In this document: positions 11,971 through 62,279 of the stretch, one piece after another
Position numbering within the stretch: the stretch's first letter is position 1
How the letters are laid out: each line of letters begins with the position of its first letter
Assembly (NCBI GenBank): GCA_963718575.1
Contig: OY970358.1
Coordinates: 728,108-792,107, forward strand
DNA length: 64,000 nt
Direction: 5' to 3'
DNA from: an uncultured bacterium
GTDB lineage: Bacteria; Patescibacteriota; Minisyncoccia; UBA6257; 2-01-FULL-56-20
The notes under the pieces: model-generated
Told to the model about the DNA's origin: nothing
Database searches by the model: none
Seen by the model: the letters and a program-made list of their open reading frames with translations, nothing else
Translations under genes and position numbers: made by a program

Positions 11971-12017
11971 CTGATTATTCCGGAAAGGGCTTCGCCCTCG
12001 GCAGTGATCTTCTCTTG

Positions 12018-12060: not shown

Positions 12061-12085
12061 GGGATAGTTATGATATAATATTTCC

Positions 12086-13163: not shown

Positions 13164-13201
13164 ATAAAAAAAGGACGCGTTCGATGGTTTGAAAGCGTCC
13201 T
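13163..13201 (-). terminator. Rho-independent terminator (minus strand) after the small ORF 13216..13419
   Basis: Hairpin aggacgc...gcgtcct, followed on the minus strand by T7-8 (plus-strand A-run 13163-13172). Confidence 0.55.
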
Positions 13202-13215
13202 GCGGGTTTGCGGTA

Positions 13216-13419
13216 TTAGGAGCACTCGTCTGCGGCGGGAAGATGTCCCTCCTTCATATCCTCGGCGGAAAACGATGGGGCGAGCACGCTGCTGGGTGGG
13301 GGTTTGTAATAGGTCGAAGGCCGAGGACCCGTTCTCTTCAACTTATCCAGAAAGATTCTCGTATCCTCCTCGGATCCAAATGAAGGCGCGACGGGGGCGA
13401 GGTTGTTTGTCAGTGACAT
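13216..13419 (-). CDS. Small Pro-rich protein (67 aa, hypothetical)
   Basis: Strong AGGAGG Shine-Dalgarno 7 nt upstream of the ATG (caggaggacaatgtATG) and a terminator immediately downstream. Internal repeat APVAPSFGSEED / APSFSAEDMKE. Confidence 0.4.
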   Translation of the reverse strand: MSLTNNLAPVAPSFGSEEDTRIFLDKLKRTGPRPSTYYKPPPSSVLAPSFSAEDMKEGHLPAADECS

Positions 13420-13563
13420 ACATTGTCCTCCTGAGCAATCTAAGAACCGAACTTATGTTAACCGAATAAAAAGGATTTGTGAATACTTTCCCGCCGGTTG
13501 CGGCTCCATTTTTTTTGCCGTAAGATTCAGACAACCATCCTCGCGCGGTCAGCTTTCCCCACC

Positions 13564-15354: not shown

Positions 15355-15390
15355 AAAAATAGCCCCGGGTCTCGGAGCTATTTTATTCTT
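15353..15390. terminator. Bidirectional intrinsic terminator between dnaG (+) and the STAS gene (-)
   Basis: Hairpin atagccccgggtctcggagctat with a T-run on plus (ttttattcttt) and an A7 run upstream, which gives a T7 run on the minus strand. Confidence 0.55.
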
Positions 15391-15403
15391 TGGGTGTTAC
15401 TGG

Positions 15404-15748
15404 TTACAAAAACGATCTGACGGCATCAGCTTCTTCGAAGTACATACTAAATACCGCATGGAGGTGTGTGACCTGAAGGAGATCCCGGAATGTTTTGGTG
15501 ATGGCTAAAAGTTTTAGATTCCCTCCACGCTCTTTGATTGTTGTGAATCCAGCGAAGAGTTCTCCAAGACCAGAAGAATCCACATATCCCACGTTTGCCA
15601 TGTTGAGAACGACTTTCGTCTTTCCACGTGCGATCAAATCAACAAAGGCATTACGGAGAACGATCGCGCCATCGTTTAACGTGATGCGTCCACGGCAATC
15701 CACGATAACAACATCGCCTATTTCTCGAAGCGTAAGATCCAGTGACAT
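15404..15748 (-). CDS. STAS-domain anti-sigma factor antagonist (SpoIIAA-like)
   Basis: 114 aa with 'DVVIVDCRGRITLNDGAIVLRNAF...VVLNMANVGYVDSSGLGELF...GGNLKLLAI', a typical STAS anti-anti-sigma fold sequence. Confidence 0.7.
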   Translation of the reverse strand: MSLDLTLREIGDVVIVDCRGRITLNDGAIVLRNAFVDLIARGKTKVVLNMANVGYVDSSGLGELFAGFTTIKERGGNLKLLAITKTFRDLLQVTHLHAVFSMYFEEADAVRSFL

Positions 15749-15910
15749 AGAGCCTCCTTTGTTTTGTTATGCCTTGCCAAATAATGACTCCACGCATCGC
15801 AATTGTCAATGTATATACAAGTGGCCGTGATTTGGGCTTCCATCGCTTTTCACTATATAATAGAGGGAACGGTCACCCCAACATAAATTTTAACTATTTT
15901 TAATAAACCC

Positions 15911-16942
15911 ATGGCAAATGTGCGCGTTGCGATAAACGGTTTCGGCAGGATCGGTCGGTTGTTCTTTAAGGCGGCATACGAATTGCCGAACATTGATATT
16001 GTGGCGATTAACGACTTGGGCGACGTGGAAAACCTTGCGTATCTTTTGAAGTACGACACGGTGTATGGTCGGTTTGAGAAAGAGATCAAGGCGGATTTGC
16101 CGAACGGCAAGTTGACGGTTGCGGGAAAGGAAATAAATTTCCTTCAGGTGAAGGACCCAACGCAGCTTCCGTGGAAAGCGTTGAACATTGATCTTGTGAT
16201 CGAGTCGACGGGATTGTTTGATGAATATGAAAAGGCAAAGGTGCACTTGGCGGCGGGCGCAAAGCGCGTCGTGATCACGGCGCCGGCGAAGGATGAGGAC
16301 GGTGCGGCCGGGCAGACGGTTTTGGTGGGTGTGAATGAAGACAACTTTAAGATCGCGCCGATCACGTCGAACGGTTCGTGCACGACGAATTCCGCGTCGC
16401 CGGTGATTCAAGTGTTGAGCGAAAATCCCGGCATCGTGAAAGCATCGCTCTCGACCGTGCACGCATACACCGCCACGCAGGCGCTCGTTGATGGCCCGAT
16501 CCGCGGCGGCCACGATTTCCGCAAGGGCCGCGCCGCGGCGATGAACACCGTTCCCGAAACGACCGGTGCCGCGATCAGCGTCGCGCGCGCGATTCCGGAG
16601 CTGAAGGGCAAGTTCGACGGGCTTTCGTTCCGCGTGCCGAACATCACCGGTTCCATCTCCGACATCACCTTCATCGCGAAGCGCGCGACGACCGTCGAAG
16701 AGATCGTGCAGATCCTTACCGACGCGGCGAACTCGCCGCGCTGGCAGGGCATCTTGCAGGTGACGCGCGACCAGCTCGTCTCGTCCGACATCATCGGCCA
16801 GCCGTTCGGCGCGACCGTTCCGCTCGACCTCATTAAAGTGATCGACGGCGATATGGTGAAGGTGTTGAGCTGGTACGACAACGAGGCCGGCTACGTTTCA
16901 ACGCTCATCAAGCACGTGGAGAAAGTGGCAGCGCTGCTGTAA
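15911..16942 (+). CDS. gap: Glyceraldehyde-3-phosphate dehydrogenase (type I)
   Basis: INGFGRIGR NAD-binding motif and the catalytic SCTTN block (SNGSCTTNSASPVIQVL). Full length. Confidence 0.95.
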   Translation: MANVRVAINGFGRIGRLFFKAAYELPNIDIVAINDLGDVENLAYLLKYDTVYGRFEKEIKADLPNGKLTVAGKEINFLQVKDPTQLPWKALNIDLVIESTGLFDEYEKAKVHLAAGAKRVVITAPAKDEDGAAGQTVLVGVNEDNFKIAPITSNGSCTTNSASPVIQVLSENPGIVKASLSTVHAYTATQALVDGPIRGGHDFRKGRAAAMNTVPETTGAAISVARAIPELKGKFDGLSFRVPNITGSISDITFIAKRATTVEEIVQILTDAANSPRWQGILQVTRDQLVSSDIIGQPFGATVPLDLIKVIDGDMVKVLSWYDNEAGYVSTLIKHVEKVAALL

Positions 16943-48544: not shown

Positions 48545-50161
48545 ATGAAACATCTTCGACTGGTCATAAAATGTATTGCCATTGGGTTTTTTGCGTTGCT
48601 CATATTTTTCGCCCTTTCACCATTGGGGAAGATCGGCGTTCCCAAAAAGGCCGATGCCGATTCGCTGGATGCGTATCCGAGCGTCTGTCTCGGAGGATGG
48701 CAGAATCCCAGCAATGCTTCCGGCCCGCCGGACGTGCCGCCGGGAGACGATTCTTTTACGGGTGATAATTCCGCCGTGCTCGATCAGGCACAAGCGCAGA
48801 TATTTTGCGGGTCCTTCCAGGCGAGCGATGAATCCCAGACGCCGACCGCGGTCACTCTGCATTTTTCCTGGAATGTGATCTTTTCGAGCCAGGTATCGAA
48901 TGCAACAAGCAATGACCCCGGTGATCCCGAATGGAGCAGCGTACTTGATGCGACGAGCACTGCCACCTCCACGACCACGACTCCTGCACCGACACCGTTG
49001 ACGACAGCATCATCGTCGGACGATCAGAGTCAAAGCATCGATCCGTCCGCAACGAGTGCCGATACTTCTTCGGACAACTCCGGCGGTTCGCAGGACGGCT
49101 CGGTGGCGACCTCCACGCCTCCGCCGGCGACGGTGTCTCCGCCCGCGCCCGATTCATCGGATTCCGATACGAGCTCCACGTCATTCCTGCAAACCATTCT
49201 CAGCGACCCGCTCGGCCTTTTAATCCAAAAGACCTTTGCTCAATCGGTTGATAATGATTCCACTACGGTCGACACCTCCGCTGCCGACGATAGCTCCACT
49301 GTCACCATGGATGCTTCCACGACCACTGACGATTCTTCCGTCGATACCGCAGACGATTTCATTGATGTGAGCTACTCGCTCGACGGGACGACATGGATCG
49401 ATCTCGGACCGGTAAGCGAGTCCGACTGGCAGAACTATTCGGTGACGATCCCGATAAGTTCGTGGAGCGATATCAACAACCTGCAAGTTCAGCTGAGCCC
49501 GCTCATCACTTCCGATGCCCCCACTATATATTTGGATGGCATGTGGCTGGAGGTGGATTACAATAATTCCATCCTGAACGATATTGAGAATGTGATATCG
49601 GACATCTTGCCGACGGATACGCTCTCCACTTCCACCGCGCCCACGAATTCCCTCACGCCGCAGGATGCCACCGATCAGAATCCCGCGCCTGCGCCGCTTC
49701 CGCCTCCACCCCCGCCGATTCCTCAGCATCAGTACACATTCACCCTTCAGGGTCCGCAGTCCATAAAGGTGGGGACGCTTGCGTGGTATCCGCACAACGA
49801 TGCTTCGGGCAGCGCGCCGGTGGGACGGGCAGGGCTTGCCCCTACCGTGAGCCTTCCTGCCACCAATACGATCGAAGTGTCGGGATCATGTTCTGCGGCG
49901 TACTACACCATCCTTATATTTCCGGACGAGAATGATTACGAAAGCAATCCGTCGCTTGCGTTATATAACAACGCCAACAAGTGCGTGAACGGGAGCTTTA
50001 CGCAAATGATCACCGACCTCGATCTTCCGCCGCAACTCGCGAGCGGCATCTACTATCTCGTGGTGGCAAATCAGGGAGTGAAAGGACCATGGGTCCCTTA
50101 TCCGGAAACCTATCCGATCCAACTGAGCGGCGTGTCCAATAGTGCCTCATCATCGCAATGA
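48545..50161 (+). CDS. Membrane-anchored Ser/Thr/Asp-rich surface protein with C-terminal 2-Cys domain (hypothetical)
   Basis: TM helix, long S/T/D low-complexity regions, a poly-Pro stretch, and a C-terminal ~90-aa block (SGSCSAAYYTILIFPDENDY...NANKCVNG...GIYYLVVANQ) shared with 54736..55245. Confidence 0.6.
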   Translation: MKHLRLVIKCIAIGFFALLIFFALSPLGKIGVPKKADADSLDAYPSVCLGGWQNPSNASGPPDVPPGDDSFTGDNSAVLDQAQAQIFCGSFQASDESQTPTAVTLHFSWNVIFSSQVSNATSNDPGDPEWSSVLDATSTATSTTTTPAPTPLTTASSSDDQSQSIDPSATSADTSSDNSGGSQDGSVATSTPPPATVSPPAPDSSDSDTSSTSFLQTILSDPLGLLIQKTFAQSVDNDSTTVDTSAADDSSTVTMDASTTTDDSSVDTADDFIDVSYSLDGTTWIDLGPVSESDWQNYSVTIPISSWSDINNLQVQLSPLITSDAPTIYLDGMWLEVDYNNSILNDIENVISDILPTDTLSTSTAPTNSLTPQDATDQNPAPAPLPPPPPPIPQHQYTFTLQGPQSIKVGTLAWYPHNDASGSAPVGRAGLAPTVSLPATNTIEVSGSCSAAYYTILIFPDENDYESNPSLALYNNANKCVNGSFTQMITDLDLPPQLASGIYYLVVANQGVKGPWVPYPETYPIQLSGVSNSASSSQ

Positions 50162-50790
50162 TAAAATCCCACTCGCTTCACAAAAGCAACATCGTTTTCG
50201 TCTTCAGAGAACACAATGTTCAGCCGCCGGAAAACCATGAGATCGTCGGACTTTATGCCGGCGCGGCCGCGAAGGGGGCGCAACTCGTGGATGATCCGAT
50301 GGTGCGGATGAAAGTGCTTGATGTCCCTGCGCGCGGCCTGCAGGTGGCGTGGGAGTCACGGCGTTTGCGCATCGAGGATATGCGCGCCGTCGAACCCGAG
50401 AGCTCGACGCTCGTCGAGGACGCGGTGATGGTCTACGAAACGCTCGTTGCCCCGCGAAAGATATTCCTGGATTCGTTCGGATTCAACTTTGAGGTCTATT
50501 ATCAGACGGCCGACGTCATCCGCATCAACGATCATTACAACGAGATCGCGGGGACATTCCTCGATCTCGGCACCGGACTTATGGATTTCGGATGGCAATG
50601 GACGGTCGCCGAAAAGAACGGGAAGATGATGAATGGGTATTTTCTGAAAGTGACGGCACCGCTCGAGTTCACGATGCATCACAATACGCATATCGCCGCA
50701 AAAGAGTTGCCGTCAAAGAAGGATCTGCAGGAAATGTTTCAAGACGCTTATGAGGCCACCAACCGCACTGCGGCGAAATTAAAATTATAG
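50158..50790 (+). CDS. Hypothetical cytoplasmic protein
   Basis: 210-aa ORF overlapping the upstream stop (ATGA); no signal peptide and no recognisable domain. Confidence 0.45.
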   Translation: MIKSHSLHKSNIVFVFREHNVQPPENHEIVGLYAGAAAKGAQLVDDPMVRMKVLDVPARGLQVAWESRRLRIEDMRAVEPESSTLVEDAVMVYETLVAPRKIFLDSFGFNFEVYYQTADVIRINDHYNEIAGTFLDLGTGLMDFGWQWTVAEKNGKMMNGYFLKVTAPLEFTMHHNTHIAAKELPSKKDLQEMFQDAYEATNRTAAKLKL

Positions 50791-50806
50791 CGACGCCAAG
50801 TATTTC

Positions 50807-52474
50807 ATGAGCATATCGATCGATCCAAAGAATGGCGTACGGCTGAGGCCGGCCCGTAAAACCGGCCGGGGGATTGCGGCGCTCATCATCGTACTCGAGG
50901 CGGTATTCTCCGTTTTTCTCTATATGTCGCTTGCGGAGAAGGTGTTTGTGGTGATCCCCGCCGCCGCCGCGCCGGGAGTCCCTGGTCTCATCGCGTATCA
51001 AGGCATGCTCACCGACACGTCGGGAAATCCGCTCGGCGGCGCGGGATCGGCCTACTGTTTCCGTTATTCCATTTGGGATTCGCAAACGAGCGGCAGCCAG
51101 CTGTGGCCTCAGCCCGCGCTCGGCGATGCATCGACCACGCCGTCGAATTCCACGACGACGGTGACCGACGGCGTGTTCAGCGATGAACTTGGCCGCACGG
51201 ACACGTTCGGCAGTCTCGACTTTGGCGCGGACACCACGGGGAGTTCGACATATTTTTTGCAGGTGCAGGTGAGCACCTCTTCGCTCACGTGCGCAACGGG
51301 GCTCGAGACGCTTTCTCCCCGCCAGCAGATCACGGCCGACGCATGGTCGCAGACTTCGCAATCGGTGTACGGCAATCAACTTCGCACTCTTGTCTCGAAT
51401 AACACCGTACAGCTTGGCACCGGCGCGGGCGTCGTTTCGGGATGGACCTTGCTTTCCCTCGACGTGGCGCATGGTTCCAGTGAGGCCGTCGGTGGGAGTT
51501 GCACGCAGAACGGCACGTTGTGGTACGACTCGACGCTCAACAAGGCGCTCGTGTGCGCGAACGATATCATCCAGCCGTTCTCGAACGGCACATCGAGCGT
51601 GACGAGCATCGGCACGAGCGGCACGAGCACGATACTCCTCAATAACGTATTTCTCTCCGCATACGCGAACCTTACGCTGAGCCAGAACGGGCAGACGATC
51701 AACTTCTCCGCGGCGGCGCCGGGAGGCGACGCGACGCTGTCGCGATGGGAGGATTATCTGTTGGGTACCAACACGACGGCAATAAGTCTTGCTCCTGCGG
51801 ATGCCTACTTCCAGCCATTTATTCTTCCCACTCCGGTCGCAGTGAGTAATATAAATCTTTTGAAGAGTTTCAGTTTTGGAATGCCGACCGCAACAAGCCA
51901 GGCATCGTCAGGATCGCAACGGTATTCTTATTCTCAGGGAATATCGCTCTTTAGTAGAGTGACGGCTGGCGGCGCCACTTCCCAGATGAGCGTAGTTACC
52001 ACGGCGAGTATGGGATTCACGATGCTCTTTTCCTATACTTCAACGTCCGAAATGCTAAGTGCGACATGGGTAACTAATAGCACCGGTGGAACGACGAGCT
52101 GGGGGACCACATCAAACTCCAATAACTTATCGAGCTATTGGATGTCCGCAAAATATTTTCCCGTACCGCTGGCGACAACTCTTACCGCCGGCGAATACTG
52201 GATGGGGTATGGAATGTCGAGTACGACTGCGAATGCAAACGTCAATGTAACCATCTTATCCATAAACCAGATCGGTTCCAGTATCGGGGCGAATACATTC
52301 GGGGTGCTTGGCAATACATCGGCGGGTTCACGCGCAAGCCTTTTCAACGGCGGTCAAGGTTATGGCTCTGTCCTTGTTGGAGGCGTTGTTACTAACAACA
52401 CAATGCCAATCAGTACCATCAGCGCCTCTAACGCCACCATGCAGCTTCAATACTTCAACTTCGCCGACTACTAA
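50807..52474 (+). CDS. Membrane-anchored Ser/Thr-rich surface protein with GWTL (WxL-like) motif
   Basis: TM helix LIIVLEAVFSVFLYMSLA, extensive S/T/G-rich sequence, and 'VVSGWTLLSLDVAHGS'. Confidence 0.5.
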   Translation: MSISIDPKNGVRLRPARKTGRGIAALIIVLEAVFSVFLYMSLAEKVFVVIPAAAAPGVPGLIAYQGMLTDTSGNPLGGAGSAYCFRYSIWDSQTSGSQLWPQPALGDASTTPSNSTTTVTDGVFSDELGRTDTFGSLDFGADTTGSSTYFLQVQVSTSSLTCATGLETLSPRQQITADAWSQTSQSVYGNQLRTLVSNNTVQLGTGAGVVSGWTLLSLDVAHGSSEAVGGSCTQNGTLWYDSTLNKALVCANDIIQPFSNGTSSVTSIGTSGTSTILLNNVFLSAYANLTLSQNGQTINFSAAAPGGDATLSRWEDYLLGTNTTAISLAPADAYFQPFILPTPVAVSNINLLKSFSFGMPTATSQASSGSQRYSYSQGISLFSRVTAGGATSQMSVVTTASMGFTMLFSYTSTSEMLSATWVTNSTGGTTSWGTTSNSNNLSSYWMSAKYFPVPLATTLTAGEYWMGYGMSSTTANANVNVTILSINQIGSSIGANTFGVLGNTSAGSRASLFNGGQGYGSVLVGGVVTNNTMPISTISASNATMQLQYFNFADY

Positions 52475-52479
52475 ATTCC

Positions 52480-53205
52480 ATGCAACCACAGATCATCGTC
52501 CCTGATTACAAAGGGAGACACAACCAGGACATCGGGAAATCGCAAGAGCGGCTATTACAGTCCAAGGCATATCAAGATCTCTCCACGATCATCATCTGCC
52601 CCACGCGCGGGCAGGTGTCGGCCAAGGTGGTGCAGAGCTGGATGGGACTCATGAAGCCGATGAACCAAAAAGTGATCGGGCCGTTGTTTGCGATCGCCAT
52701 GGAAGTGGGGGAGGCATACAATTCCATGATCGAAATGATACTCGGGAATCCGGAGCTCTCCACTTGGAAATATATCCTGACGATCGAAGAGGACAATATG
52801 CCGCCGCCGGACGGACTTCTTAAGCTATACGAAGACATGGATCAGTACGACGTGGTCGGCGGATTGTATTGGACGAAAGGAGAGGGCGGCCAGCCGATGA
52901 TCTATGGCGATCCCGCCGTGGAACCGATCAACTTTATTCCGCAGATCCCCGAGACCGAAGGGCTTCAGCCGGCGAACGGCCTCGGTATGGGATTCAATCT
53001 TTTTAAGATGGAACTATTCAAAGACCCTAAATTGCCGCGCCCGTGGTTCCGCACTGTACAGGAATTCATTCCGGGGCAGGGCGCGCGGGCTTACACGCAG
53101 GATTTATACTTCTACGAGAATGCCGGAAAGCTTGGCTATAAATTTGCCTGCGACACGCGCGTGAAGGTCGGCCACTATGATGCGGCGATGGACGTCGTAT
53201 GGTGA
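52480..53205 (+). CDS. Putative GT-A-fold glycosyltransferase
   Basis: 'STIIICPTRGQVSAKVVQSW' (Rossmann start), 'YILTIEEDNMPPPDGLLKL' (DxD-like EED), and a C-terminal 'QDLYFYENAGKLGYKFACDTRVKVGHYD'. Moderate pattern-level match only. Confidence 0.4.
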   Translation: MQPQIIVPDYKGRHNQDIGKSQERLLQSKAYQDLSTIIICPTRGQVSAKVVQSWMGLMKPMNQKVIGPLFAIAMEVGEAYNSMIEMILGNPELSTWKYILTIEEDNMPPPDGLLKLYEDMDQYDVVGGLYWTKGEGGQPMIYGDPAVEPINFIPQIPETEGLQPANGLGMGFNLFKMELFKDPKLPRPWFRTVQEFIPGQGARAYTQDLYFYENAGKLGYKFACDTRVKVGHYDAAMDVVW

Positions 53206-53217
53206 TACAATAAATCA

Positions 53218-54228
53218 ATGAAAAAAAATCTTCGCGTCATCCTGATCGTCATTCTCGCGCTTGTCGTCGGCGTCGCGGTGGGATACTTTGTGAACGGGCT
53301 CGTCGCCCCGCCATCGCCGGTCGTCGCGGTGCCTCAAGAACCTTCTCCAGTGCCGATGGTTCAGCCGCTCTCCACCTCCACGACGGGCTACGGGTTGTTG
53401 AATGGCGACGTCGCCTGGCAGAGCGGTCAGCACTTCATTGTCAACTTCGAACCGCTTCGTGCCCAGATCGCTTCCATCACCCAGGAGTATCCCCAGAACA
53501 CCTATATCTATTTTGATTATCTGAACAGCTCGGCCAACTTTGGCACCAACGCGCGAATGCTCTTTACGGCGGCCAGCACCGTCAAGGTTCCGCTCGCAAT
53601 GGCGGTCTATAAAATGGCGGAAGAAGGAAAATTGGACATGAACTCCAATTACACCCTTCAACAATCCGACCTTGACAGCAATTTTGGCACGCTCTACAAG
53701 GCCGGTGCCGGAGCGACGTACACTATCCAGCAGCTCGTTTCCATCATGCTTGAACAATCGGACAATACCGCCATGAATGCGCTTCTTTCCGCGCTGAACA
53801 ATATCGGGGTAGCCGATCCGTTCGCGGACGTCTATCAGCAGATGGGGTGGAATAATTTTCCCACAATCGGTCAGTCCACCAACTATGCGGATTACATAAA
53901 CATCGACGTCCATACGCTTTCCAACATGTTCCTTGCTCTTTATAATGCGAGCTACGACAGTCCTGTCGATTCGCAGGCGATCCTTTCATATCTTACGCAG
54001 ACGCCATTTAGCGATGAGATCGTCGCGGGCGTGCCTTCAAGCACTATCGTGGCCCATAAGATCGGCACCTCGGCCGACAATAACACCTATTCCGATTGTG
54101 GTATCGTGTATGCTCCGTCGCGTCCATACATCCTGTGCGTGGGATCGAGCGGCGCGAGCGAACAATCGGCAGATCAGTTCATTTCGCAGGTATCCAAAGC
54201 CACCTACCAATACGTCATTAATAACTAA
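53218..54228 (+). CDS. Membrane-anchored class-A beta-lactamase-fold serine hydrolase (PBP/beta-lactamase-like)
   Basis: TM helix, then the SxxK motif (AASTVKVP), the SDN motif (EQSDNTAMN) and a KTG-like motif (HKIGTS). Confidence 0.65.
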   Translation: MKKNLRVILIVILALVVGVAVGYFVNGLVAPPSPVVAVPQEPSPVPMVQPLSTSTTGYGLLNGDVAWQSGQHFIVNFEPLRAQIASITQEYPQNTYIYFDYLNSSANFGTNARMLFTAASTVKVPLAMAVYKMAEEGKLDMNSNYTLQQSDLDSNFGTLYKAGAGATYTIQQLVSIMLEQSDNTAMNALLSALNNIGVADPFADVYQQMGWNNFPTIGQSTNYADYINIDVHTLSNMFLALYNASYDSPVDSQAILSYLTQTPFSDEIVAGVPSSTIVAHKIGTSADNNTYSDCGIVYAPSRPYILCVGSSGASEQSADQFISQVSKATYQYVINN

Positions 54229-54229
54229 C

Positions 54230-54739
54230 ATGAAACTCGACATTGCCTGCGGGCAGAACAAGCAGAAAGGATTCAAAGGGGTCGACATCGCGCCGGGGGA
54301 GAGCGTGGATTTTGTGTGGGACCTCGAGAAATATCCGTGGGAGCCGTTCAAGGATAATTCCTTCGACGAGATCTATGTGAGCCATTATGCCGAGCATACG
54401 AAAGACCTGATGAAGTTCATGAACGAGGTTTGGCGTATTTGCGAGAACGATGCCAAGGTGACGATCGTCGGGCCGTACTACACGTCCATCCGCGCATGGC
54501 AGGATCCGACACATACCCGCGTGCTTTCGGAAGCGACATGGCTTTATTACAACAAGGATTGGCGGAAAATGAACAAGCTCGATCATTATCCGATCACGTG
54601 CGATTTCGGCGTTCAGCAGATGACCGTGTTCTTTGCACCGCCGTGGGATAAAAAAACGGAAGAGGCGCGGCAGTTCGCGCAGCAGCATTATTGGAACGTG
54701 GTCTCCGACATCTGCGTCGAACTCAAAGTCATTAAATGA
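54230..54739 (+). CDS. Class I SAM-dependent methyltransferase (Methyltransf_11-like)
   Basis: Motif I 'LDIACGQNKQKGFKGVDI'; 169 aa. The ORF opens far upstream but the ATG at 54230 directly follows the hydrolase stop. Confidence 0.65.
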   Translation: MKLDIACGQNKQKGFKGVDIAPGESVDFVWDLEKYPWEPFKDNSFDEIYVSHYAEHTKDLMKFMNEVWRICENDAKVTIVGPYYTSIRAWQDPTHTRVLSEATWLYYNKDWRKMNKLDHYPITCDFGVQQMTVFFAPPWDKKTEEARQFAQQHYWNVVSDICVELKVIK

Positions 54740-55245
54740 AGCTTTCTGATCGCACCAATAGGGAATACCGCATCCTTGCGATCGCGATCGTTTTCTTCAT
54801 CGCCGGCGCAATATTTTTCTGGCATGACGCATCGTTGCCAACCTCACATTCTTCGCCGTCCGCCGGCGCGCCCGCACCGGCCGTTTCTGTCCAGTCCGCG
54901 AACGTCGCGCCGGGCCAGCAGATCGATCCCGATTTTGCAAAATTTCCTCCGCCTGCACAGTTCAGAACATTTGTGTACAATCAGAACGGGTTTAACAAGC
55001 TGTCGACGCTTTCGATCTCCTCAATGTGCAATGCGGCATACATGGCGATCCTGATCTTCCCCGTTGCCGTCGATTACCGGAGCGATATCAATGCCGCTGT
55101 CTACAACGATGCGTTTCCGTGCACCGCCGGCCAGACATTCACGCTCGCGATCACGACAAGCGACATCGCAACCGCGCCGTTCGGAACGTATTACTTTATT
55201 GTTGCGGATCAGGAGAAAAGCGGTGCGTGGTATAATCCAAGATAA
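54736..55245 (+). CDS. Membrane-anchored protein carrying the shared 2-Cys C-terminal domain (hypothetical)
   Basis: TM helix ILAIAIVFFIAGAIFFW. The C-terminal block 'SMCNAAYMAILIFPVAVDY...FPCTAGQ...GTYYFIVADQ' is homologous to the C-terminus of 48545..50161. Confidence 0.5.
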   Translation: MKLSDRTNREYRILAIAIVFFIAGAIFFWHDASLPTSHSSPSAGAPAPAVSVQSANVAPGQQIDPDFAKFPPPAQFRTFVYNQNGFNKLSTLSISSMCNAAYMAILIFPVAVDYRSDINAAVYNDAFPCTAGQTFTLAITTSDIATAPFGTYYFIVADQEKSGAWYNPR

Positions 55246-55247
55246 GC

Positions 55248-55679
55248 ATGAAGCGTGAAAGTATTTTCTTGTGGAAGGTCGCATGGGGTACGGCGGCGGC
55301 GATCGTCGTGGCGGGTCTGCTGTTTTTTAATTTCAACGATCTTGTGATGTGGGCAACGCTGAACAACCCGTTTCAGGGGCAGTGGTCGGTGGTGCAGCTT
55401 TCGGATGGAGAGATCCTCTACGGGCATCTTTCCGGCGTGACCGGAACGACGATTGGCTTGAGCGATGTCTATCTTTTGGACAAGATATCGCCGGAGCCCG
55501 CGACGCCCGCCATCTCAAGTTCGACCGGCATCACGATGGGGGCGGCGGCAGGAGCGCCTGCCGCTCAGCCGTTGCTTGTGCCCATAAGTGACACCCCTCA
55601 GCTTTTCATCAATCGCGCCGCCGTCCTTTATTTCAAATTCGTGACGCCGGACGATCCCGCGCTCCCGTATCTCCATTAA
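55248..55679 (+). CDS. Membrane-anchored hypothetical protein
   Basis: 143 aa with an N-terminal TM helix and a Pro/Ala-rich linker. Confidence 0.45.
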   Translation: MKRESIFLWKVAWGTAAAIVVAGLLFFNFNDLVMWATLNNPFQGQWSVVQLSDGEILYGHLSGVTGTTIGLSDVYLLDKISPEPATPAISSSTGITMGAAAGAPAAQPLLVPISDTPQLFINRAAVLYFKFVTPDDPALPYLH

Positions 55680-55715: not shown

Positions 55716-57065
55716 TTGTCTGCGGCTGTGAAAAAACGAATATTTTTTTTCATATTGATAGCGGTTGGACTGCTCTCCGGCGTTTCTCATGCGCAGGTGG
55801 TCCTTATCAACTCCTCTTCCACGGATTTTTTCCTCAGGGCGGAGACTGAAAGCATCGTTGGAAATTCGCAGTCGACGGACTTCGGTCTTTTTAACAGCGG
55901 GCAGACGCTTTCACTCCCGCTCATGTCATCGGCCGATTTTCAGATCTTTTCCGGGATCATCAAGCCGATCTTCCAGCCGGTGAAGCCGATCTATGCGCAG
56001 ATCCACTATCAATGGCGAAACGATAATGGCAGCGAAACCTCCGCCACTTCCGCGACGGGAGGAAGTGAAGATACTGTGCTCACCGGCCTCGCACAGAATT
56101 CCAGTATCCGCGTCCGGATGGAAATAACGAATTCCGGCGGTACGATCCTTTCCTATTCGTCGCAGTCGTTTCAGTTGCAATACGGTCAGTTGAGCACTAC
56201 CTGTTCCGCCATCTCGTCATGGACGGGGGTCGGCACCGCGAGCGCGGTATGGGCGATGTATAACTCGGGCAATCTGACCGACGGGCAGAATACCACAAAC
56301 ATTGCCACTTCCACCGGCGGCGTGGTAGACGCGAATCACACCTTTATCGTAGCGAACGCCGGAGTGAAGACCACGACGAGCACGGTGAGCGCGATCTCCG
56401 TGCCAAGCGATTCGTTCATCGAGATGGAGTTCGATATCCAGGCGCTTTCCAGTTCCACGGCGGGTGCCACCTATTGTTTCCGGCTTACCAACGCCGGTTC
56501 GGCAACCAACTTTTCATATTCGCAATATCCGCAGGCGACGCTTTCCAGTCAGTCGATAACGCTCACGCTCAATACTGCGACCGTGAACTTGCCGGCGCTC
56601 GCTCCGGGGGTCGCCGGTTCCGCGACGACCACGGCGACCGTGAGCGTGACCGGGGCCTCGAGTGGATATACGCTATCCATCAACCGCAATTCCGCAACCT
56701 CGACGCTTACTTCGGGCACGATCCAATTCCCCGACGCTTCCGCATGGAACCCTTCGGGATCGAGCTGTGCATCCGGACAGGGGAATGGCACGACGACGCC
56801 CGGCAATACATTTTCGTTCCGCGTGGCGTCTTCCGGTACCACCGCAAACTATTGCTCGTTCTGGTGGGGTGCGAGTGACACCGGTGGAACGGCATTATAT
56901 GCGGGCGTGCCCACTTCCTCCAAGATCATCGTCAACTCCACATCGTCGGCGTCGCAAAACGGTACCACTGCGGTAACGATCATATATAGCGCGAATGCGC
57001 CATTGAGCCAGGAAGCGACAAGCTATACGGGAAGCGTTACCATCACTGCGATTGCGAACCCGTAG
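55716..57065 (+). CDS. Secreted Ser/Thr-rich WxL-like surface protein (long paralog)
   Basis: Signal peptide (TTG/GTG start ambiguity). C-terminal ~190 aa are homologous to 57119..57778 (LPALAPG...SINRNSATSTLTSGTIQFPDA...YTGSVTITAIANP). Confidence 0.55.
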   Translation: MSAAVKKRIFFFILIAVGLLSGVSHAQVVLINSSSTDFFLRAETESIVGNSQSTDFGLFNSGQTLSLPLMSSADFQIFSGIIKPIFQPVKPIYAQIHYQWRNDNGSETSATSATGGSEDTVLTGLAQNSSIRVRMEITNSGGTILSYSSQSFQLQYGQLSTTCSAISSWTGVGTASAVWAMYNSGNLTDGQNTTNIATSTGGVVDANHTFIVANAGVKTTTSTVSAISVPSDSFIEMEFDIQALSSSTAGATYCFRLTNAGSATNFSYSQYPQATLSSQSITLTLNTATVNLPALAPGVAGSATTTATVSVTGASSGYTLSINRNSATSTLTSGTIQFPDASAWNPSGSSCASGQGNGTTTPGNTFSFRVASSGTTANYCSFWWGASDTGGTALYAGVPTSSKIIVNSTSSASQNGTTAVTIIYSANAPLSQEATSYTGSVTITAIANP

Positions 57066-57118: not shown

Positions 57119-57778
57119 ATGGAAAAATCACTGGTCGGGCCTTCTTTGAAAGTGTTCTCGTTCGTCGTATCTATAGCGGTGTTGGTCGGTGTCATTGCAA
57201 ATTTTGGAGGAAAAATTTTCACGCCGACGGCGCATGCATTGACATCCACTTCGACCACGCAAACGATCAATGTGACGGTCAATCAAGTCATCACGCTTTC
57301 GCTTGGTACCTCCACGTTAAGCCTGCCGGCTCTTACGCCGGGCGCTCCGGTCACCGCAACGACGAGCGCGACGGTCACCACAAACGCATCTGCGGGATGG
57401 CAGTTGGATTTCAACCGCAACAGTGCCACATCGACGATCGCATCCGGCACCATAACCTTCCCTGATGCAACTCCCTTCAACGGTTCCAACGCAACGACAA
57501 CAGCGAACCTTACGAATAGCGGACAGGTGCTCGCATTCCGCGCCTATCAGACGGGTACGAGCGCGGGTATCTACAATGCGACAACCTGGGGAGCAAACGA
57601 TGCAGCAAGCGCCATGTGGGCCGGTTTTCCCACCTCGACCGTTGTTGCGGTGAGCACAAGCACATATATCGGTAGCGCACAGACCGTTGTATACGGGGTC
57701 TATGCCAACGCACCGGCCACACAGGTTGCCACCAACTATACCGGAACGATCACTGTCACAGCGATAGCGCTTCCGTAA
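57119..57778 (+). CDS. Secreted WxL-like domain protein
   Basis: Signal/TM, then 'ASAGWQLDFNRNSATSTIASGTITFPDA', the first WxL-like motif in its usual context. C-terminal 'YTGTITVTAIALP'; T/S-rich. Confidence 0.55.
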   Translation: MEKSLVGPSLKVFSFVVSIAVLVGVIANFGGKIFTPTAHALTSTSTTQTINVTVNQVITLSLGTSTLSLPALTPGAPVTATTSATVTTNASAGWQLDFNRNSATSTIASGTITFPDATPFNGSNATTTANLTNSGQVLAFRAYQTGTSAGIYNATTWGANDAASAMWAGFPTSTVVAVSTSTYIGSAQTVVYGVYANAPATQVATNYTGTITVTAIALP

Positions 57779-57808
57779 GGCGGGTGTGGTGTGGTATCCT
57801 TATCCAAT

Positions 57809-58714
57809 ATGAAAAAGAACGCAGGGGTTCTGTCTCTCACCTTCGCCGCGGTTTTAAGCTTATTTTTTTTGTTCCCCAATCAAAGTCACGCGCAAGTAGG
57901 AATATCCCTGTTTCCGATAAAATTCGATGTCACTGTTGCGCCGGGTCAGACCTATTCCGATACGGTCACCGTCATCAATCCGAACAATTTCCCGATCGGC
58001 GTCCAGCCGGAGGTGGAGAACATCGCAGGCGGCAACCAGGGTTCGATCGATCTGACCGACACCGACATCCCGCACGGACTTTCCGCGTGGATCAACCTCA
58101 ATGAGGCGGAATTCACGCTTGCTCCGCAACAACAGCTGCAGATACCATTCACAATCACGGTGCCGGCTGACGGCGAGCCGGGCGGCCATTATGGCGCGAT
58201 CCTTTTCCGCGGACTTTCTGCGGGATCTTCGACCAATGCCGGGGTCGGTATCTCCGGCAGGGTGGGGACGGTCATTCTTTTGAATGTGCCGGGCGCATCC
58301 TATGCCACCGGAAATGTGGCGAGTTTCGCTGGCCCTGCCGCGTATGTCTCCCACGGTCCGTTCCCGTTCACATTCACGGTGAACAACACCGGTAACACGC
58401 ACTTTACTCCACAGGGACAGATCGCGTTGAGCGGTCCGTTCTTTGGCAATGCCGTGGTGCCATTCACCTCCGGAATCGTTTTCCCCGGTTATGATCGGAC
58501 GTTCACCGCAAGCTGGCCGGGGCGCTACGCGTTCGGCCCCATCACGGCGACGCTTTCGCTTACCATACCCGACAACACGAGCACGGTGGTCGAGACCATC
58601 ACATTCTTTGCCTTTCCATGGCAGGAGACGCTGATCGTGCTCGTCATTCTTCTTGTCCTTTTCTTTATCTTTAAGACCTGGAAGAAGAATTTCAAGATTG
58701 TGCGGGTAAAGTGA
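57809..58714 (+). CDS. DUF916 (CscA)-like cell-surface protein with C-terminal TM anchor
   Basis: Signal peptide, then 'ISLFPIKFDVTVAPGQTYSDTVTVINPNNFPIGVQ...ITVPADGEPGGHYGAILF' matching the DUF916 pattern (YFDL..PG..QTL.V.L.N.S...I ... GG.Y). C-terminal helix LIVLVILLVLFFIF followed by basic residues. Confidence 0.55.
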   Translation: MKKNAGVLSLTFAAVLSLFFLFPNQSHAQVGISLFPIKFDVTVAPGQTYSDTVTVINPNNFPIGVQPEVENIAGGNQGSIDLTDTDIPHGLSAWINLNEAEFTLAPQQQLQIPFTITVPADGEPGGHYGAILFRGLSAGSSTNAGVGISGRVGTVILLNVPGASYATGNVASFAGPAAYVSHGPFPFTFTVNNTGNTHFTPQGQIALSGPFFGNAVVPFTSGIVFPGYDRTFTASWPGRYAFGPITATLSLTIPDNTSTVVETITFFAFPWQETLIVLVILLVLFFIFKTWKKNFKIVRVK

Positions 58715-58726: not shown

Positions 58727-59941
58727 GTGAAGAAGGTAATATGCAGCGCCATATTCTTCGGGGCATTGTTTCCGGTTCTCATTGCGAGCGCCCAGATTTA
58801 TAATGCGGCGAATTCTATGCAGTTGACGGTCACGGTGGTATATCCTCCGGTCGCTCCCGCTGACCTTAATGCCACGACAACATCGAGTTCGGAGATCGAT
58901 CTTTCTTGGGTGACTACCAGTACGAATCAGGCCGGATTTTCCATAGAAGAGTCGGTGGGGAACGATGCTCTTTTTACACCGATCGACACGGTCGGGCCGG
59001 CGGCCAGGAGTTATTCACGCACCGGACTTTTGCCGAGCACGACCTATTTCTATCGGGTGAGGGCGTATAATGGCGCGGGTTCAAGTGCGCCGTCCAACGA
59101 AGCCGCCGCAACGACATCCGCTGCTCCTTCGGGCAATACCGGCGGCGGATCGGGTGCCGGCGGTTCTTCCGGTGGCGGTGGAGGAGGAGGCGGATCGTCA
59201 TATGTGCCGCCGGTCTTCCAGACGTCGGCGATGTTCAGCGGTATCGCATATCCATTGAGCACGGTCACGCTCCTTGAAAATGGCCAGGTTGCCGCCGTGA
59301 CGCAATCGGGGCCTGATGCAACATTCCAAATAAACCTTGCGAATCTTCCGGCCGGAACATATAACTTTGGGGTCTCTGCAAAGGATCCGCAGGGAAACCA
59401 TTCGGCCATCCAGACGTTTTCAAGCACCCTCACTCCCGGCGCGGAGACGGTGATCAGCGGGATATTTTTCCCGCCTACCATCACCGCAGATAAAGTGCAG
59501 GTGAAGCGGGGGGATGTGCTTACATTATTCGGATACGCCGCGCCACAAGGGCAGGTTGCCGTGATGGTCAATTCCCTGAATGAGATCTCGGCGACCGTGA
59601 CATCGACCGCGTCGGGGCTATGGACCTATCCGGTGAGCACCGACCAGCTGGAGATGGGAGGGCACACGGCGCATGTGTGGGAAGCAGCCGACGGCAACGT
59701 GACGCCGGATTCGGAAATATTCTCATTCACGGTCGGCAATACCGACGTTGCTGCGCCGCCGGTATCGGCGGGTCCGTCGAAAGGCGATGTGAACGGAGAC
59801 GGGAAAGTAAACCTCCTTGATTTTTCGATCATGGCCTATTGGTGGGGAAAGTCGAATCCGCCGGCGACGTTGCGGCTCGACGGCAAACCGGAGATCGACC
59901 TTGCCGATTTCAGCATCATGGCATATTACTGGACCGGCTGA
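58727..59941 (+). CDS. Secreted FN3-domain protein with C-terminal type-I-like dockerin
   Basis: GTG start and signal peptide. FN3 region (PADLNATTTSSSEIDLSWV...STTYFYRVRAYNGAGSSAPS). Poly-Gly linker, Ig-like region, and C-terminal 'GDVNGDGKVNLLDFSIMAYWW...LDGKPEIDLADFSIMAYYW', two dockerin Ca-binding repeats. Confidence 0.7.
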   Translation: MKKVICSAIFFGALFPVLIASAQIYNAANSMQLTVTVVYPPVAPADLNATTTSSSEIDLSWVTTSTNQAGFSIEESVGNDALFTPIDTVGPAARSYSRTGLLPSTTYFYRVRAYNGAGSSAPSNEAAATTSAAPSGNTGGGSGAGGSSGGGGGGGGSSYVPPVFQTSAMFSGIAYPLSTVTLLENGQVAAVTQSGPDATFQINLANLPAGTYNFGVSAKDPQGNHSAIQTFSSTLTPGAETVISGIFFPPTITADKVQVKRGDVLTLFGYAAPQGQVAVMVNSLNEISATVTSTASGLWTYPVSTDQLEMGGHTAHVWEAADGNVTPDSEIFSFTVGNTDVAAPPVSAGPSKGDVNGDGKVNLLDFSIMAYWWGKSNPPATLRLDGKPEIDLADFSIMAYYWTG

Positions 59942-59942
59942 C

Positions 59943-60845
59943 ATGAAAAAAACATTCCCGGTGATAGTGTTTGCGATCGCGCTCATGTTTCCCTGGCGTT
60001 CATTCGCGTCCGTGATGACCATCGCGCCATCGCCCACGAACTCCGATATGATCGTGGTCAGCCTTGATACGCAGGGGGATTCCATCAATGCGATACAGGG
60101 ACATTTTACATTTGATACAAACGCATTTTTTGTGAATGAGGTGAGTGACGGAAATTCCATCGTCAATTTCTGGGTCGAGGCGCCGGCGTTTTCAAACACC
60201 TCCGGCACGTTGGATTTTGCGGGGATCATTCCCGGAGGGGAAGTGACAGCTGATGGAGTCATTGCCACGATCGGCATCACCCCGCGGGGATCGGTTGCGA
60301 CGTCGGGCTTTGCGCTCGTTTCCGCGCAGGCACTTTTGAATGACGGGAACGCGACGCCGTCGGACCTTTCCGTGGCAAGCAAGCCATTTCCGCTCGTGGC
60401 CGGAAGTGTTCCGCTGATAGGCCAGAACTCACTCGCGCCCGATCCGTTCACGCCACAGGTCGGCCGGGATCCGGGCATTTTCAACGGACAGTATTTCGTC
60501 GCCTTTACCGCCACGGACCAGGGATCCGGTATCGACCACTACAATGTGCTCGAGGTGCCGGCAGGGACGAAGATATCGACATCATCCGACTGGCAATGGG
60601 CGACCTCCCCTTATCTTCTCCGCGATCAGACGCTTTCAAGCGATATTTATGTGCGTGCGTTCGACGAGTCGGGAAATTTCCGCACGGAAGAGATCCCCGC
60701 AAAACATAAAAAGCCGGGGGGGTCGCTCCCGTGGGGGGATATCGGAATGTCCGCCGTAGCCATAGTGTTACTATTATTAGTGATAGGACTTATCCGCAAG
60801 CGTCGAACATGGAAAAGGAAACGATCCGCAGGAAATTTTGCGTAG
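59943..60845 (+). CDS. Membrane-anchored cohesin-domain protein 1
   Basis: Signal peptide MKKTFPVIVFAIALMF. Cohesin-like block 'DSINAIQGHFTFDTNAFFVNEVSDGNSIVNFWVEAP...GTLDFAGII...DGVIATIGITP'. A second beta domain contains 'SGIDHY'. C-terminal TM AVAIVLLLLVIGLI + RKRR. Starts 2 nt after the dockerin gene stop. Confidence 0.6.
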   Translation: MKKTFPVIVFAIALMFPWRSFASVMTIAPSPTNSDMIVVSLDTQGDSINAIQGHFTFDTNAFFVNEVSDGNSIVNFWVEAPAFSNTSGTLDFAGIIPGGEVTADGVIATIGITPRGSVATSGFALVSAQALLNDGNATPSDLSVASKPFPLVAGSVPLIGQNSLAPDPFTPQVGRDPGIFNGQYFVAFTATDQGSGIDHYNVLEVPAGTKISTSSDWQWATSPYLLRDQTLSSDIYVRAFDESGNFRTEEIPAKHKKPGGSLPWGDIGMSAVAIVLLLLVIGLIRKRRTWKRKRSAGNFA

Positions 60846-62233
60846 CACTTGGGGCCGTCGCGCTGTGTGTGGTTCTTTGGGGTGCCCATGACGCCCACGC
60901 GGCGATGCTTTCCCTCTCTCCGCAATCGGGAACCTATTTTACCGGGAGAAGCTTCAGCGTCTCCGTGGAAGTTTCCTCGCCCGGAGAGGCGATCAATGCG
61001 GTACAGGGCGAGGTCACTTTCCCGAAGAATGATCTCGAAGTGCTTTCGGTCTCTAAAGCGAATTCCGTTCTGAATCTCTGGGTGCAGGATCCGACATTTT
61101 CAAACCAGGATGGTACGGTTGATTTTGCGGGAGTCGTCCTGAGTCCCGGGTTTCAAGGCGCCGCCGGAAATGTAATTACGATCACCTTCGAAGCGAAGAG
61201 TGCCGGCGTCGCTCCGCTCTCGATCGATCCGGCGTCGGTGCTTGCGAATGACGGAAGCGGAACGGATATCTTGACCGCCACGCAGGGCGCTTCGTTCACG
61301 ATGGCTCCGCTTTCTACGGTGCCGGGTCCCCCGGCCACGGGAAACGTGAATATGGATATGGCATCGAGTACGGTGTCACCGTCGACCGTCATTACCTCGA
61401 GCCCGCTCATCACAAACGGAGCATGGTACAACATCAACCAGGTCACCTTTAACTGGAATGTTCCGGCGGGCGCCGACGGCATCAATTACATGATATCGAC
61501 CGACCCCAACCTCCACCTCCCGGACGTGAATCAAGGATTGGTCTCGCAGACCTCGTATGATCTTTCGAACTTTGCCGACGGCGTCTGGTACTTTTTTGTG
61601 AGCTTCGAAAATGGCAGTGTATGGTCGCCGCCGGCGGTGGAGAAGCTGATGCTTGATCGCACCCCGCCCGATTCATTTGTCATCACGCGGGAAGATACCG
61701 ACCTAACGGATCCCCAGCCGGTGTTCTCGTGGCTCGCGACCGACGGGATGTCTGGCATCGACCACTACGAAGCGAAGATCGGCGACGGTGACTGGTTCAA
61801 TCCTGCGAACTTTCAGAGTGGAAATTCATTGTATGCGTTGCCGGTTCAGTCACCGACGGCCGGCCGCTGGCTCACGGTGCGGGCGTTCGACAAGGCAGGG
61901 AATTATACCGATGCCTCGATCAGTTTCCGCGTGCTCGCGCCGGAGGCATCATGTGCGGGAGCCGCGACGTTATGCGCACTTTCCGAATTCTTCGTGCAGT
62001 GGAGCTGGTTGATGGTGTTCATGCTGATCATCCTTCTTATCGTGGCATACGGTTTTATCTATCATCTTCTACGGTGGAAGAAGCGTTCGTCGAAAGTATT
62101 GAAAAAATTCGAAGATATATTGAGCGGGGATCTCGGCGGACCTCACCTTTTAGCCGAACAGCCCGAACTCGAAAAAATCGTTCAGCCCGTTGTTGACGAT
62201 GTGAGGGAAGGGGGAGAAGGACCGAAGGAATAG
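60809..62233 (+). CDS. Membrane-anchored cohesin-domain protein 2
   Basis: Signal peptide. Cohesin-like block 'EAINAVQGEVTFPKNDLEVLSVSKANSVLNLWVQDP...GTVDFAGVV...NVITITFEAKSAG'. 'SGIDHY' beta domain shared with protein 1. C-terminal TM LMVFMLIILLIVAYGFIY + RWKKR. Overlaps the upstream gene by 37 nt. Confidence 0.6.
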   Translation: MEKETIRRKFCVALGAVALCVVLWGAHDAHAAMLSLSPQSGTYFTGRSFSVSVEVSSPGEAINAVQGEVTFPKNDLEVLSVSKANSVLNLWVQDPTFSNQDGTVDFAGVVLSPGFQGAAGNVITITFEAKSAGVAPLSIDPASVLANDGSGTDILTATQGASFTMAPLSTVPGPPATGNVNMDMASSTVSPSTVITSSPLITNGAWYNINQVTFNWNVPAGADGINYMISTDPNLHLPDVNQGLVSQTSYDLSNFADGVWYFFVSFENGSVWSPPAVEKLMLDRTPPDSFVITREDTDLTDPQPVFSWLATDGMSGIDHYEAKIGDGDWFNPANFQSGNSLYALPVQSPTAGRWLTVRAFDKAGNYTDASISFRVLAPEASCAGAATLCALSEFFVQWSWLMVFMLIILLIVAYGFIYHLLRWKKRSSKVLKKFEDILSGDLGGPHLLAEQPELEKIVQPVVDDVREGGEGPKE

Positions 62234-62279
62234 CGGCGCAGCTGGCAATACGGGCTTATTTTTGTTACTATTCCGATAT

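Follow-up and report, generated by a model that had tools for sequence, protein, structure and literature searches.

Bacteria of the candidate phyla radiation (CPR, Patescibacteria) live attached to other microbes, and surface proteins are therefore central to CPR biology; to our knowledge, nearly all of these proteins are unannotated and nothing is known of their glycosylation. In Gram-positive bacteria, serine-rich-repeat adhesin loci carry a serine/threonine (Ser/Thr)-rich adhesin gene beside genes for dedicated cytoplasmic glycosyltransferases (GTs), GtfA and GtfB, which are GT-B enzymes, and export at these loci proceeds via SecA2/SecY2 together with the Asp proteins. The WxL loci of Firmicutes carry, as far as we know, no pair of GT and methyltransferase (MT) genes. 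Among viruses, protein A197 of Sulfolobus turreted icosahedral virus (STIV) is essential to the virus and "possibly glycosylates" the glycosylated STIV capsid protein, and its D151E mutation delays STIV replication (PMC10551542). Glycans have also been described at the C-termini of mycobacteriophage subunits (Freeman et al. 2023, as cited in PMC11600133 and PMC12619734), and a 2024 preprint on Saccharibacteria pili terms the processes of CPR surface-protein glycosylation "unexplored". Here, we analyzed a stretch of 64,000 nucleotides (hereafter the window; contig OY970358.1 of assembly GCA_963718575.1, positions 728,108 to 792,107) from an uncultured bacterium that belongs to the Patescibacteria and is of the Paceibacteria type. 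Its surface-protein locus contains a core unit of three components, a Ser/Thr-rich fibre-like protein ending in a conserved C-terminal domain (G3C), an A197-like GT and a class I MT. No published description of this module was found in the literature on Patescibacteria surface proteins, glycosylation or phage tail fibres.

All genes between 44.3 and 62.2 kb of the window lie on the plus strand, in the order prfB, a coiled-coil gene, ftsE, ftsX, a CAP-domain gene, the genes denoted here G1 to G14, and the atp operon. The triad is formed by G3 (50807-52474; a signal-anchored, Ser/Thr-rich, fibre-like beta-sandwich protein of 555 amino acids (aa)), whose C-terminal domain of about 250 aa, G3C (51704-52471), accompanies the GT-MT pair as a conserved partner, G4 (52480-53205; a soluble A197-like glycosyltransferase of GT-A fold, 241 aa, without signal peptide or transmembrane (TM) segment), and G6 (54230-54739; a small soluble class I S-adenosylmethionine (SAM)-dependent methyltransferase of 169 aa with a W-x-D-P-T-H motif). 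A membrane-anchored serine enzyme, G5 (53218-54228), is encoded between G4 and G6. The genes are tightly packed, as a preliminary description of the window had claimed when it spoke of abutting or overlapping genes on one strand, and all of its open reading frames (ORFs) were recovered: G1 (48545-50161) and G2 (50158-50790) overlap by 4 nt, gaps of 5, 12 and 1 nt separate G3 from G4, G4 from G5 and G5 from G6, G6 and G7 (54736-55245) again overlap by 4 nt, and G8 (55248-55679) begins 2 nt later. According to TM prediction, hydrophobic N-terminal anchors are present in G1, G3, G5, G7 and G8, with none in G2, G4 and G6. A site scan returned promoter-like and terminator-like sites in this region at chance level only, and promoter/terminator structure was therefore rejected as evidence for an operon.

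Neither Pfam nor NCBIfam gave a match to G4 itself at E-values up to 0.1, and in PHROGs it matched phrog_1574 (function unknown; 1.5e-13) and, weakly, a GT family. An exhaustive search yielded 1287 clusters at 50% identity, and a profile of 69 relatives (28-60% identical) built from it matched STIV A197 (PDB 2c0n; E=1.2e-6), which is the closest solved relative of G4 at about 16% identity. Pfam Glycos_transf_2 (PF00535) was matched by 16 of the 69 relatives. The stretch I-E103-E104-D105-N of G4 aligns with L-D-E-D of A197, reading xED and not strict DxD, and Q-D208-L-Y-F aligns with E-D151-V-Y-F, which makes D208 the candidate catalytic base. Residues E103, D105, D208, G231 and H232 are each conserved in at least 90% of the 69 relatives. 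G4 homologues number 4786, none of them named, and no Pfam domain occurs among the 120 matches listed. Judged by predicted fold and motifs, the assignment of G4 as a GT-A fold glycosyltransferase is confirmed as a fold call. The preliminary description had proposed a putative GT-A glycosyltransferase here, to be abandoned if the protein folded as something else; the fold, a DxD-type motif and the catalytic Asp all agree with the proposal, and only membership in a curated Pfam family is missing.

The small SAM-dependent methyltransferase proposed for 54230 is likewise substantiated. G6 scored 28.8 bits against Pfam Methyltransf_11 (cut-off 21.2; E 2e-6), with only profile positions 55-93 matched, and its family profile matched PDB entry 3dli (E=1.8e-6) over a region that includes the DPTH stretch; 3dli is a structural-genomics entry named only "methyltransferase". 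The N-terminus of G6 opens at motif I, the glycine-rich SAM loop (L3-D-I-A-C7-G8), and all 38 homologues compared retain G17, D19 and D92-P-T-H95, in agreement with the acidic residue that class I enzymes carry where beta2 ends. G6 has no close relative that has been characterized, and neither a signal peptide nor a TM segment was predicted in it.

To assess conservation, we scanned genomes at one per species, which gave 122 loci; the counts given below rest on 80 of these 122. The GT and MT genes are adjacent in 74 of the 80 genome loci, and the pair is present in metagenome-assembled genomes (MAGs) labelled as Paceibacteria, Saccharimonadia, Daviesbacteria and Falkowbacteria. The closest loci were found on an 829-kb chromosome of an "uncultured bacterium" and in a Candidatus Paceibacterota MAG, with FtsE 96-97% identical to that of the window. 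G2, G3, G4, G5, G6 and G7 all occur together in 20 loci (17 of them in the window order), and three more loci lack G5 only; the gene set is thus conserved in relatives, and the concern that it might not be, voiced in the preliminary description, did not materialize. Across the 20 full-set loci, the GT and the MT have median identities to their window counterparts of 68% and 74%, respectively, as compared to 55% for FtsE, 53% for release factor 2 (RF2), 48% for G5 and 27-40% for the surface proteins. These identities show the GT and MT to be under unusually strong sequence constraint.

The third component, G3, had no match in Pfam, PHROGs or NCBIfam. Its anchor follows the positive-inside pattern, by which the bulk of the protein is expected to be extracellular. 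With the C-terminal 256 residues of G3 as query, Jackhmmer detected G3C in 74 of 82 sources. In each of these it is C-terminal in an ORF that shares the strand of the GT and stops shortly ahead of it; among the eight misses, at least three (L025, L066 and L073) have the GT less than 1 kb from a contig end. G3C itself had no match in Pfam, PHROGs or PDB sequences, nor did nine viral G3C proteins match any PHROG, and G3C is a new domain that belongs to no described family. A word-indexed homologue search retrieved six proteins with G3C alone and 41 with the G3C profile. Because so few G3C homologues were retrieved, the alignment behind the structure model of G3 is shallow and the model gives only weak fold matches, and G3C was given no fold family. 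A nearly invariant Ser is present in a T-L-S-L-x-x-S motif of the G3 family.

The regions preceding G3C differ among lineages. In Paceibacteria-type proteins, the N-terminal part consists of an anchor and beta domains. The Saccharimonadia proteins carry N-terminal "GGNNITLSQS" repeats and no signal peptide, and their loci follow the order WxL-like gene, WxLIP gene, 235-aa tail-fibre/baseplate-like protein (an ORF just upstream of the G3C protein that matches a baseplate PHROG), G3C protein, GT, MT and WxLIP gene. Daviesbacteria-type loci encode three tandem G3C paralogues whose N-terminal domain is of the phage tail-fibre kind (phrog_8469, 9e-14). Among G3C proteins, an N-terminal anchor was observed only in the 25 Paceibacteria-type sources; it is present in none of the 49 viral proteins and in none of the other cellular types. 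Every anchored case is accompanied by G2, a predicted cytoplasmic protein of 210 aa without a TM segment, which the preliminary description did not mention and which had no match in Pfam, PHROGs, NCBIfam or PDB sequences. G2 is present in 28 of the 80 loci, each time immediately upstream of the G3 homologue, and is carried by all 24 other loci whose G3 bears an N-terminal TM segment.

We also checked viral genomes for the triad. IMG/VR contains 269 contigs with a GT 51-74% identical to G4, and neighbours were counted in 80 of these 269. The MT stands beside the GT in 78-79 of the 80, and an ORF with G3C was detected in 46; the cellular neighbours WxLIP, G1, G2, G5, G7 and ftsEX were found in none of the 80. 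In the complete circular phage ctKR88 (42.6 kb), the series G3C protein-MT-GT-MT lies downstream of the major capsid gene and three other GTs. Its G4 and G6 homologues are 46% and 42% identical to those of the window, respectively, and its G3C protein matches a Saccharimonadia one at 1e-22. Two IMG/VR contigs were checked and proved to be phages, one with portal, major head protein, amidase and tail fibre genes (L105) and one in which the GT-MT pair lies among central-tail-fibre, minor-tail and virion structural genes (L083). In the cluster J mycobacteriophage Thibault, a G4-like GT (gp11; 24% identity to G4, E about 1e-4) directly follows the major head gene, and genes for a kinase, an MT and four further GTs come after it. 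GT and MT genes are thus situated within a structural block in the phage homologues, not in the window itself. A neighbour-joining (NJ) tree of 157 G4 sequences, which has no support values, shows viral and cellular members interleaved in 12 blocks, with the window clade as sister to a viral block, and thus only suggests repeated exchange of the GT between phages and cells.

As a separate observation in L105, a nucleotide-sugar epimerase gene (11117-12103; phrog_540, 1e-94) lies just downstream of the G4 homologue and precedes an ORF at the expected position of a G6-type MT (putative); with an epimerase beside its GT, this phage would itself provide or modify the sugar donor.

Several cellular loci depart from the common arrangement. 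A Daviesbacteria-type MAG (L027) encodes a GT2-UDP-glucose dehydrogenase fusion just upstream of its G3C paralogues. In the same locus, the gene after the MT (11607-16802) encodes a protein of 1731 aa, about 1100 residues of which are near-perfect S-P-S-V-S-T/S-S-P-S repeats, a candidate for an extreme O-glycosylation substrate. In L032 (11-6541), a further locus of the Daviesbacteria type, and likewise in L033, three tandem G3C paralogues are directly preceded by two GT2 genes and a tandem array of five genes for Methyltransf_24/TylF-like O-methyltransferases, and the G6 homologue is 10 kb away, not adjoining the GT. These two loci are labelled Gammaproteobacteria but have a GC content of 34-37%, and the bins may therefore be mis-assigned. 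In addition, L040 and L041 share the same 20.7-kb locus under the labels "Patescibacteria group bacterium" and "Acidobacteria bacterium" (499-kb contig), which reflects either a wrong taxonomic label or a shared element.

We favour the reading that the triad is a phage-type module for glycosylation and methylation of structural proteins which has become fixed in a Patescibacteria surface-protein locus, and we give it about an even chance of being correct. In such a module, the GT would glycosylate the G3-family protein from a nucleotide sugar, probably on Ser/Thr, and the MT would methylate the resulting glycan or, less likely, the protein, in parallel with phage cassettes that have GT and O-methyltransferase genes among virion structural genes. 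In the lineage of the window (Paceibacteria type), the fibre protein has gained its N-terminal membrane anchor. Since the fibre protein is anchored and is encoded in a chromosomal, syntenic surface-protein locus, we infer that the product of the module is most likely a fibre or adhesin displayed, in decorated form, on the cell surface. The preliminary description had suggested that these enzymes modify or process the neighbouring surface proteins. G3C travels with the GT-MT pair in cells and phages, which suggests that the GT and MT decorate the adjoining Ser/Thr-rich protein, and this part of the suggestion is considerably strengthened; the inclusion of the hydrolase G5 as a core member is not.

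A number of points weigh against this reading. None of the cluster proteins has been seen to bear a glycan or a methyl group. The GT and MT are soluble, while the bulk of G3 should be extracellular, and co-translational export would keep G3 from cytoplasmic enzymes; moreover, the cluster contains no accessory Sec system, flippase or GT-C transferase. Gene adjacency is correlative, and the phage G3C proteins have no PHROG family, their placement in the virion being only presumed. It is our speculation that G2 bridges the topological gap between the enzymes and G3. A more specific proposal, possible but clearly more tentative, is that the triad represents an undescribed, self-contained cytoplasmic system for protein glycosylation and methylation with its own acceptor domain, common to Patescibacteria and their phages and exchanged repeatedly between them. 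A phage fibre and its enzymes would then have been domesticated, with the anchor and the helper G2 added, and the product used for host attachment or as a phage decoy or shield.

The chief rival explanation concerns the acceptor. The GT and MT may instead make a methylated glycan (lipid-linked, a wall polymer or free), which the G3C jelly-roll and other surface proteins would bind as a lectin or carbohydrate-binding-module ligand; in phages, the two enzymes would change the host surface, resulting in receptor masking or superinfection exclusion. This account avoids the topology problem of a cytoplasmic GT and an exported protein, and it would fit the polysaccharide and teichoic-acid GTs GlfT2, BcsA and TarP being among the closest GT-A structures to G4, the nearby WxLIP domain being of a peptidoglycan-binding type, and the UDP-glucose dehydrogenase, multiple GT2s and TylF-like sugar O-methyltransferases of the variant loci, which are typical of glycan clusters. 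However, the machinery of such a pathway (priming transferase, flippase, polymerase, ABC exporter, membrane segment) was not found in the cluster by a Pfam search of G1-G10, among which G2, G7 and G8 remained unmatched. Seroconversion genes do sit beside tailspike genes, but the known seroconversion systems (Gtr) rely on membrane proteins, which are absent here. In addition, the strict G3C-GT-MT order is kept in the structural modules of lytic-looking phages, whose virions are assembled in the cytoplasm, and synthesis of a methylated glycan explains this three-gene order less well. We consider this explanation doubtful on balance.

We also considered whether the triad is what remains, in decaying or selfish form, of a phage tail-fibre module and has no function in the cell, its linkage reflecting nothing more than descent from phage insertions. 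Such an origin would be consistent with the interleaving of viral and cellular GTs in the NJ tree and the sister position of the window clade to a viral block, with the tail-fibre and baseplate PHROG matches in some cellular loci, and with the G3C proteins outside the Paceibacteria type, which like the phage ones carry no export signal. However, a PHROGs search of the window cluster genes returned no phage hallmark (portal, capsid, terminase or other), the GC content of these genes (0.52-0.57, as compared to 0.55 for the window) is unremarkable, and relatives with FtsE identity as low as 54-59% have the locus at an unchanged chromosomal position, flanked by ftsEX and the atp operon. For these reasons, a prophage in the window was ruled out. 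Moreover, all ORFs are intact, the GT and MT are strongly constrained, and the lineage-specific gain of an anchor together with G2 points to adaptation, leaving the remnant explanation quite improbable.

The preliminary description had further identified G5 as a membrane-anchored hydrolase of class A beta-lactamase fold with SxxK, SDN and KTG-like motifs, and all of these features were found. G5 matches Pfam Beta-lactamase2 (2.3e-39) and carries the motifs S120-T-V-K123, S181-D-N183 and K281-I-G283 (KIG in place of KTG), of which S, K, S, D, K and G are retained by all 28 homologues compared; an N-terminal TM segment is present in 27 of the 28. Its best PDB match is PBP-A Tll2115 of Thermosynechococcus (E=1.3e-16, residues 80-331). 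Both proteins have SxxK, SDN and K-T/I-G motifs, and neither has Glu at the class A Glu166 position: Ser220 of G5, preceded by Gln219, aligns with PBP-A Leu158 (Glu in the L158E entry, 2j9o), with the loop alignment uncertain by 1-2 residues, and Glu occurs at position 219 in 12 of the 28 homologues. Unlike PBP-A, G5 has an N-terminal membrane anchor, a linker of about 80 residues and KIG for KTG. A true beta-lactamase or resistance enzyme was rejected on the grounds that a Glu166 equivalent is lacking, that G5 reaches 90 bits on NCBIfam bla_class_A, far short of the cut-off of 200, and that PBP-A is the best match; G5 is, judging by these similarities, probably a peptidoglycan DD-peptidase separate from the core module. 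In the explanation put forward in the preliminary description, the GT, MT and hydrolase belong to one pathway that acts on the surface proteins nearby, and the hydrolase would serve in their maturation or processing. This explanation draws on the contiguity of the three genes in the window and 17 identically ordered loci and on an anchored catalytic domain lying outside, where the surface proteins are, but it is the least probable of all. L001 and L008, the two loci closest to the window, have no G5 but retain all other genes of the set; in L004, L029, L042 and L050, G5 precedes the GT; and it was found in none of the Saccharimonadia-type, Daviesbacteria-type or viral loci scanned, which together mark it as accessory and not core. 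Its closest characterized relative is a cyanobacterial DD-peptidase, by which peptidoglycan would be the likely substrate.

Besides G3, several neighbouring genes encode putative surface proteins, for four of which (48545, 50807, 54736 and 55248) an extreme Ser/Thr/Asp content had been claimed. The summed Ser and Thr content has a median of 11.3% in the window (standard deviation 6.4%). The claim is borne out for 48545 (25.1%, with 9% Asp) and 50807 (26.5%), each at about +2 standard deviations; 54736 (15.4%) and 55248 (14.0%) lie within 0.5 standard deviations and are therefore not extreme. The richest neighbours stand just beyond the range covered by that description, at 55716 (30%) and 57119 (29%). 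The highest content in the window (31.9%) was observed far from the cluster, in a 1004-aa ORF on the plus strand (8529-11543), another candidate surface protein.

G1 (48545) is an N-anchored Ser/Thr/Asp-rich surface protein of 538 aa (TM 1-33), and G7 (54736) is an anchored protein of 169 aa (TM 9-34). The two share a paralogous C-terminal domain of about 75 aa with two Cys residues (G1 residues 442-516 and G7 residues 91-165 are 43% identical, E=1e-14). Homologues of G1 were found in 30 of the 80 genome loci and of G7 in 28. G8 (55248), an anchored protein of 143 aa (TM 6-36), is poorly conserved and was detected in only 8 of the 80. None of G1, G7 and G8 had a match in Pfam, PHROGs or NCBIfam.

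Further downstream, G9 (55716-57065) and G10 (57119-57778) encode secreted Ser/Thr-rich paralogues immediately upstream of the WxLIP protein G11, with a common 170-aa domain (G9 279-449 and G10 56-219; 47% identical, E=3e-31). Neither had a match in Pfam, WxL included, at E-values up to 0.1, nor in PHROGs or NCBIfam. As their sole resemblance to WxL proteins is a single W-Q-L and a Y-T-G-x-[IV]-T-[IV]-T-A-I-A tail, both noted on reading the sequences, they are possibly WxL-like. Tails of the form Y-T-x-[ST]-[IV]-T-[IVY] were also seen in WxL-cluster-like genes of L064 (4914-7185 and 11337-12835). G11 (57791-58714) is of the WxL-interacting-protein type, with a signal peptide and TM segments at 9-31 and 269-301 (C-terminal), and passes Pfam WxLIP_PGBD (PF06030, DUF916; 34.9 bits against a cut-off of 27.3). 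A G11 homologue is present in 47 of the 80 loci; in Saccharimonadia it directly follows the GT-MT pair, in most of these loci at +1.3-1.5 kb from the GT.

G12 to G14 (58727-62233) encode an fn3/Big/dockerin-like protein and two cohesin-like anchored proteins and end at the atp operon (ATP-synt_A match at 62262). Their Pfam matches are fn3 (5e-10) and, below the cut-offs, Dockerin_1 (1.4e-4) and Cohesin (7e-4 and 1e-3). The three genes are syntenic in about 12 Paceibacteria-type loci, and these domain matches suggest a cohesin-dockerin-type surface assembly. The ORFs listed within this segment overlap by 125 and 115 nt, and the starts of 59817 and 60731 are therefore probably further downstream.

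At the other end of the locus, prfB, which encodes RF2 (44128-45179), has a canonical +1 programmed frameshift site (CTT TGA C) at 44189-44195. A second change of frame, from that of the ORF at 44060 to that of the ORF at 44310, occurs at about 44340-44377, where there is no known RF2 recoding site; it may reflect an error of one base in the assembly, or the gene may truly be disrupted.

Among the many "hypothetical proteins" of CPR genomes, this analysis singles out one small, testable module and defines two families that have no Pfam model, G4 (in PHROGs only phrog_1574, function unknown) and G3C (no PHROG). The link to phage structural modules provides a concrete hypothesis of fibre decoration, as well as a possible history of phage-host exchange or domestication, and the triad sequences offer handles with which likely CPR-infecting phages can be recognized in metagenomes.

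Compared to the systems described previously, the window locus shows partial likeness to each. Serine-rich-repeat loci resemble it in placing dedicated cytoplasmic GTs beside a Ser/Thr-rich protein, but the window cluster has no SecA2/SecY2/Asp proteins and no LPXTG anchor, and it contains a methyltransferase, which those loci do not. Its likeness to the WxL/Csc clusters of Firmicutes consists of the WxLIP domain and C-terminal TM segment of G11, with secreted paralogues encoded just upstream, and the triad of Saccharimonadia has WxLIP-type genes to either side of it; unlike in those clusters, no Pfam WxL domain is present in G9/G10 and no LPXTG protein was seen. A197 shares its fold and motifs with G4 and, like G4, has a putative acceptor, but it is a protein of an archaeal virus, with neither an adjoining methyltransferase nor a G3C-type partner. 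The mycobacteriophage cassettes (an O-methyltransferase and three GTs in cluster O; gp11-gp19 of Thibault in cluster J) have GT and MT genes among structural genes, as do the triad-bearing phages. These cassettes hold several GTs and modify HK97-type capsid and tail-tube subunits, with no G3C-domain protein, and the likeness of their methyltransferases to G6 is one of gene arrangement; the present module, unlike them, lies on a bacterial chromosome and encodes a membrane-anchored protein. Taken together, the unit is a conserved, unannotated triad common to Patescibacteria and phages, for which we propose, with moderate confidence, a mechanism of a known kind, the phage-type glycosylation of structural proteins.

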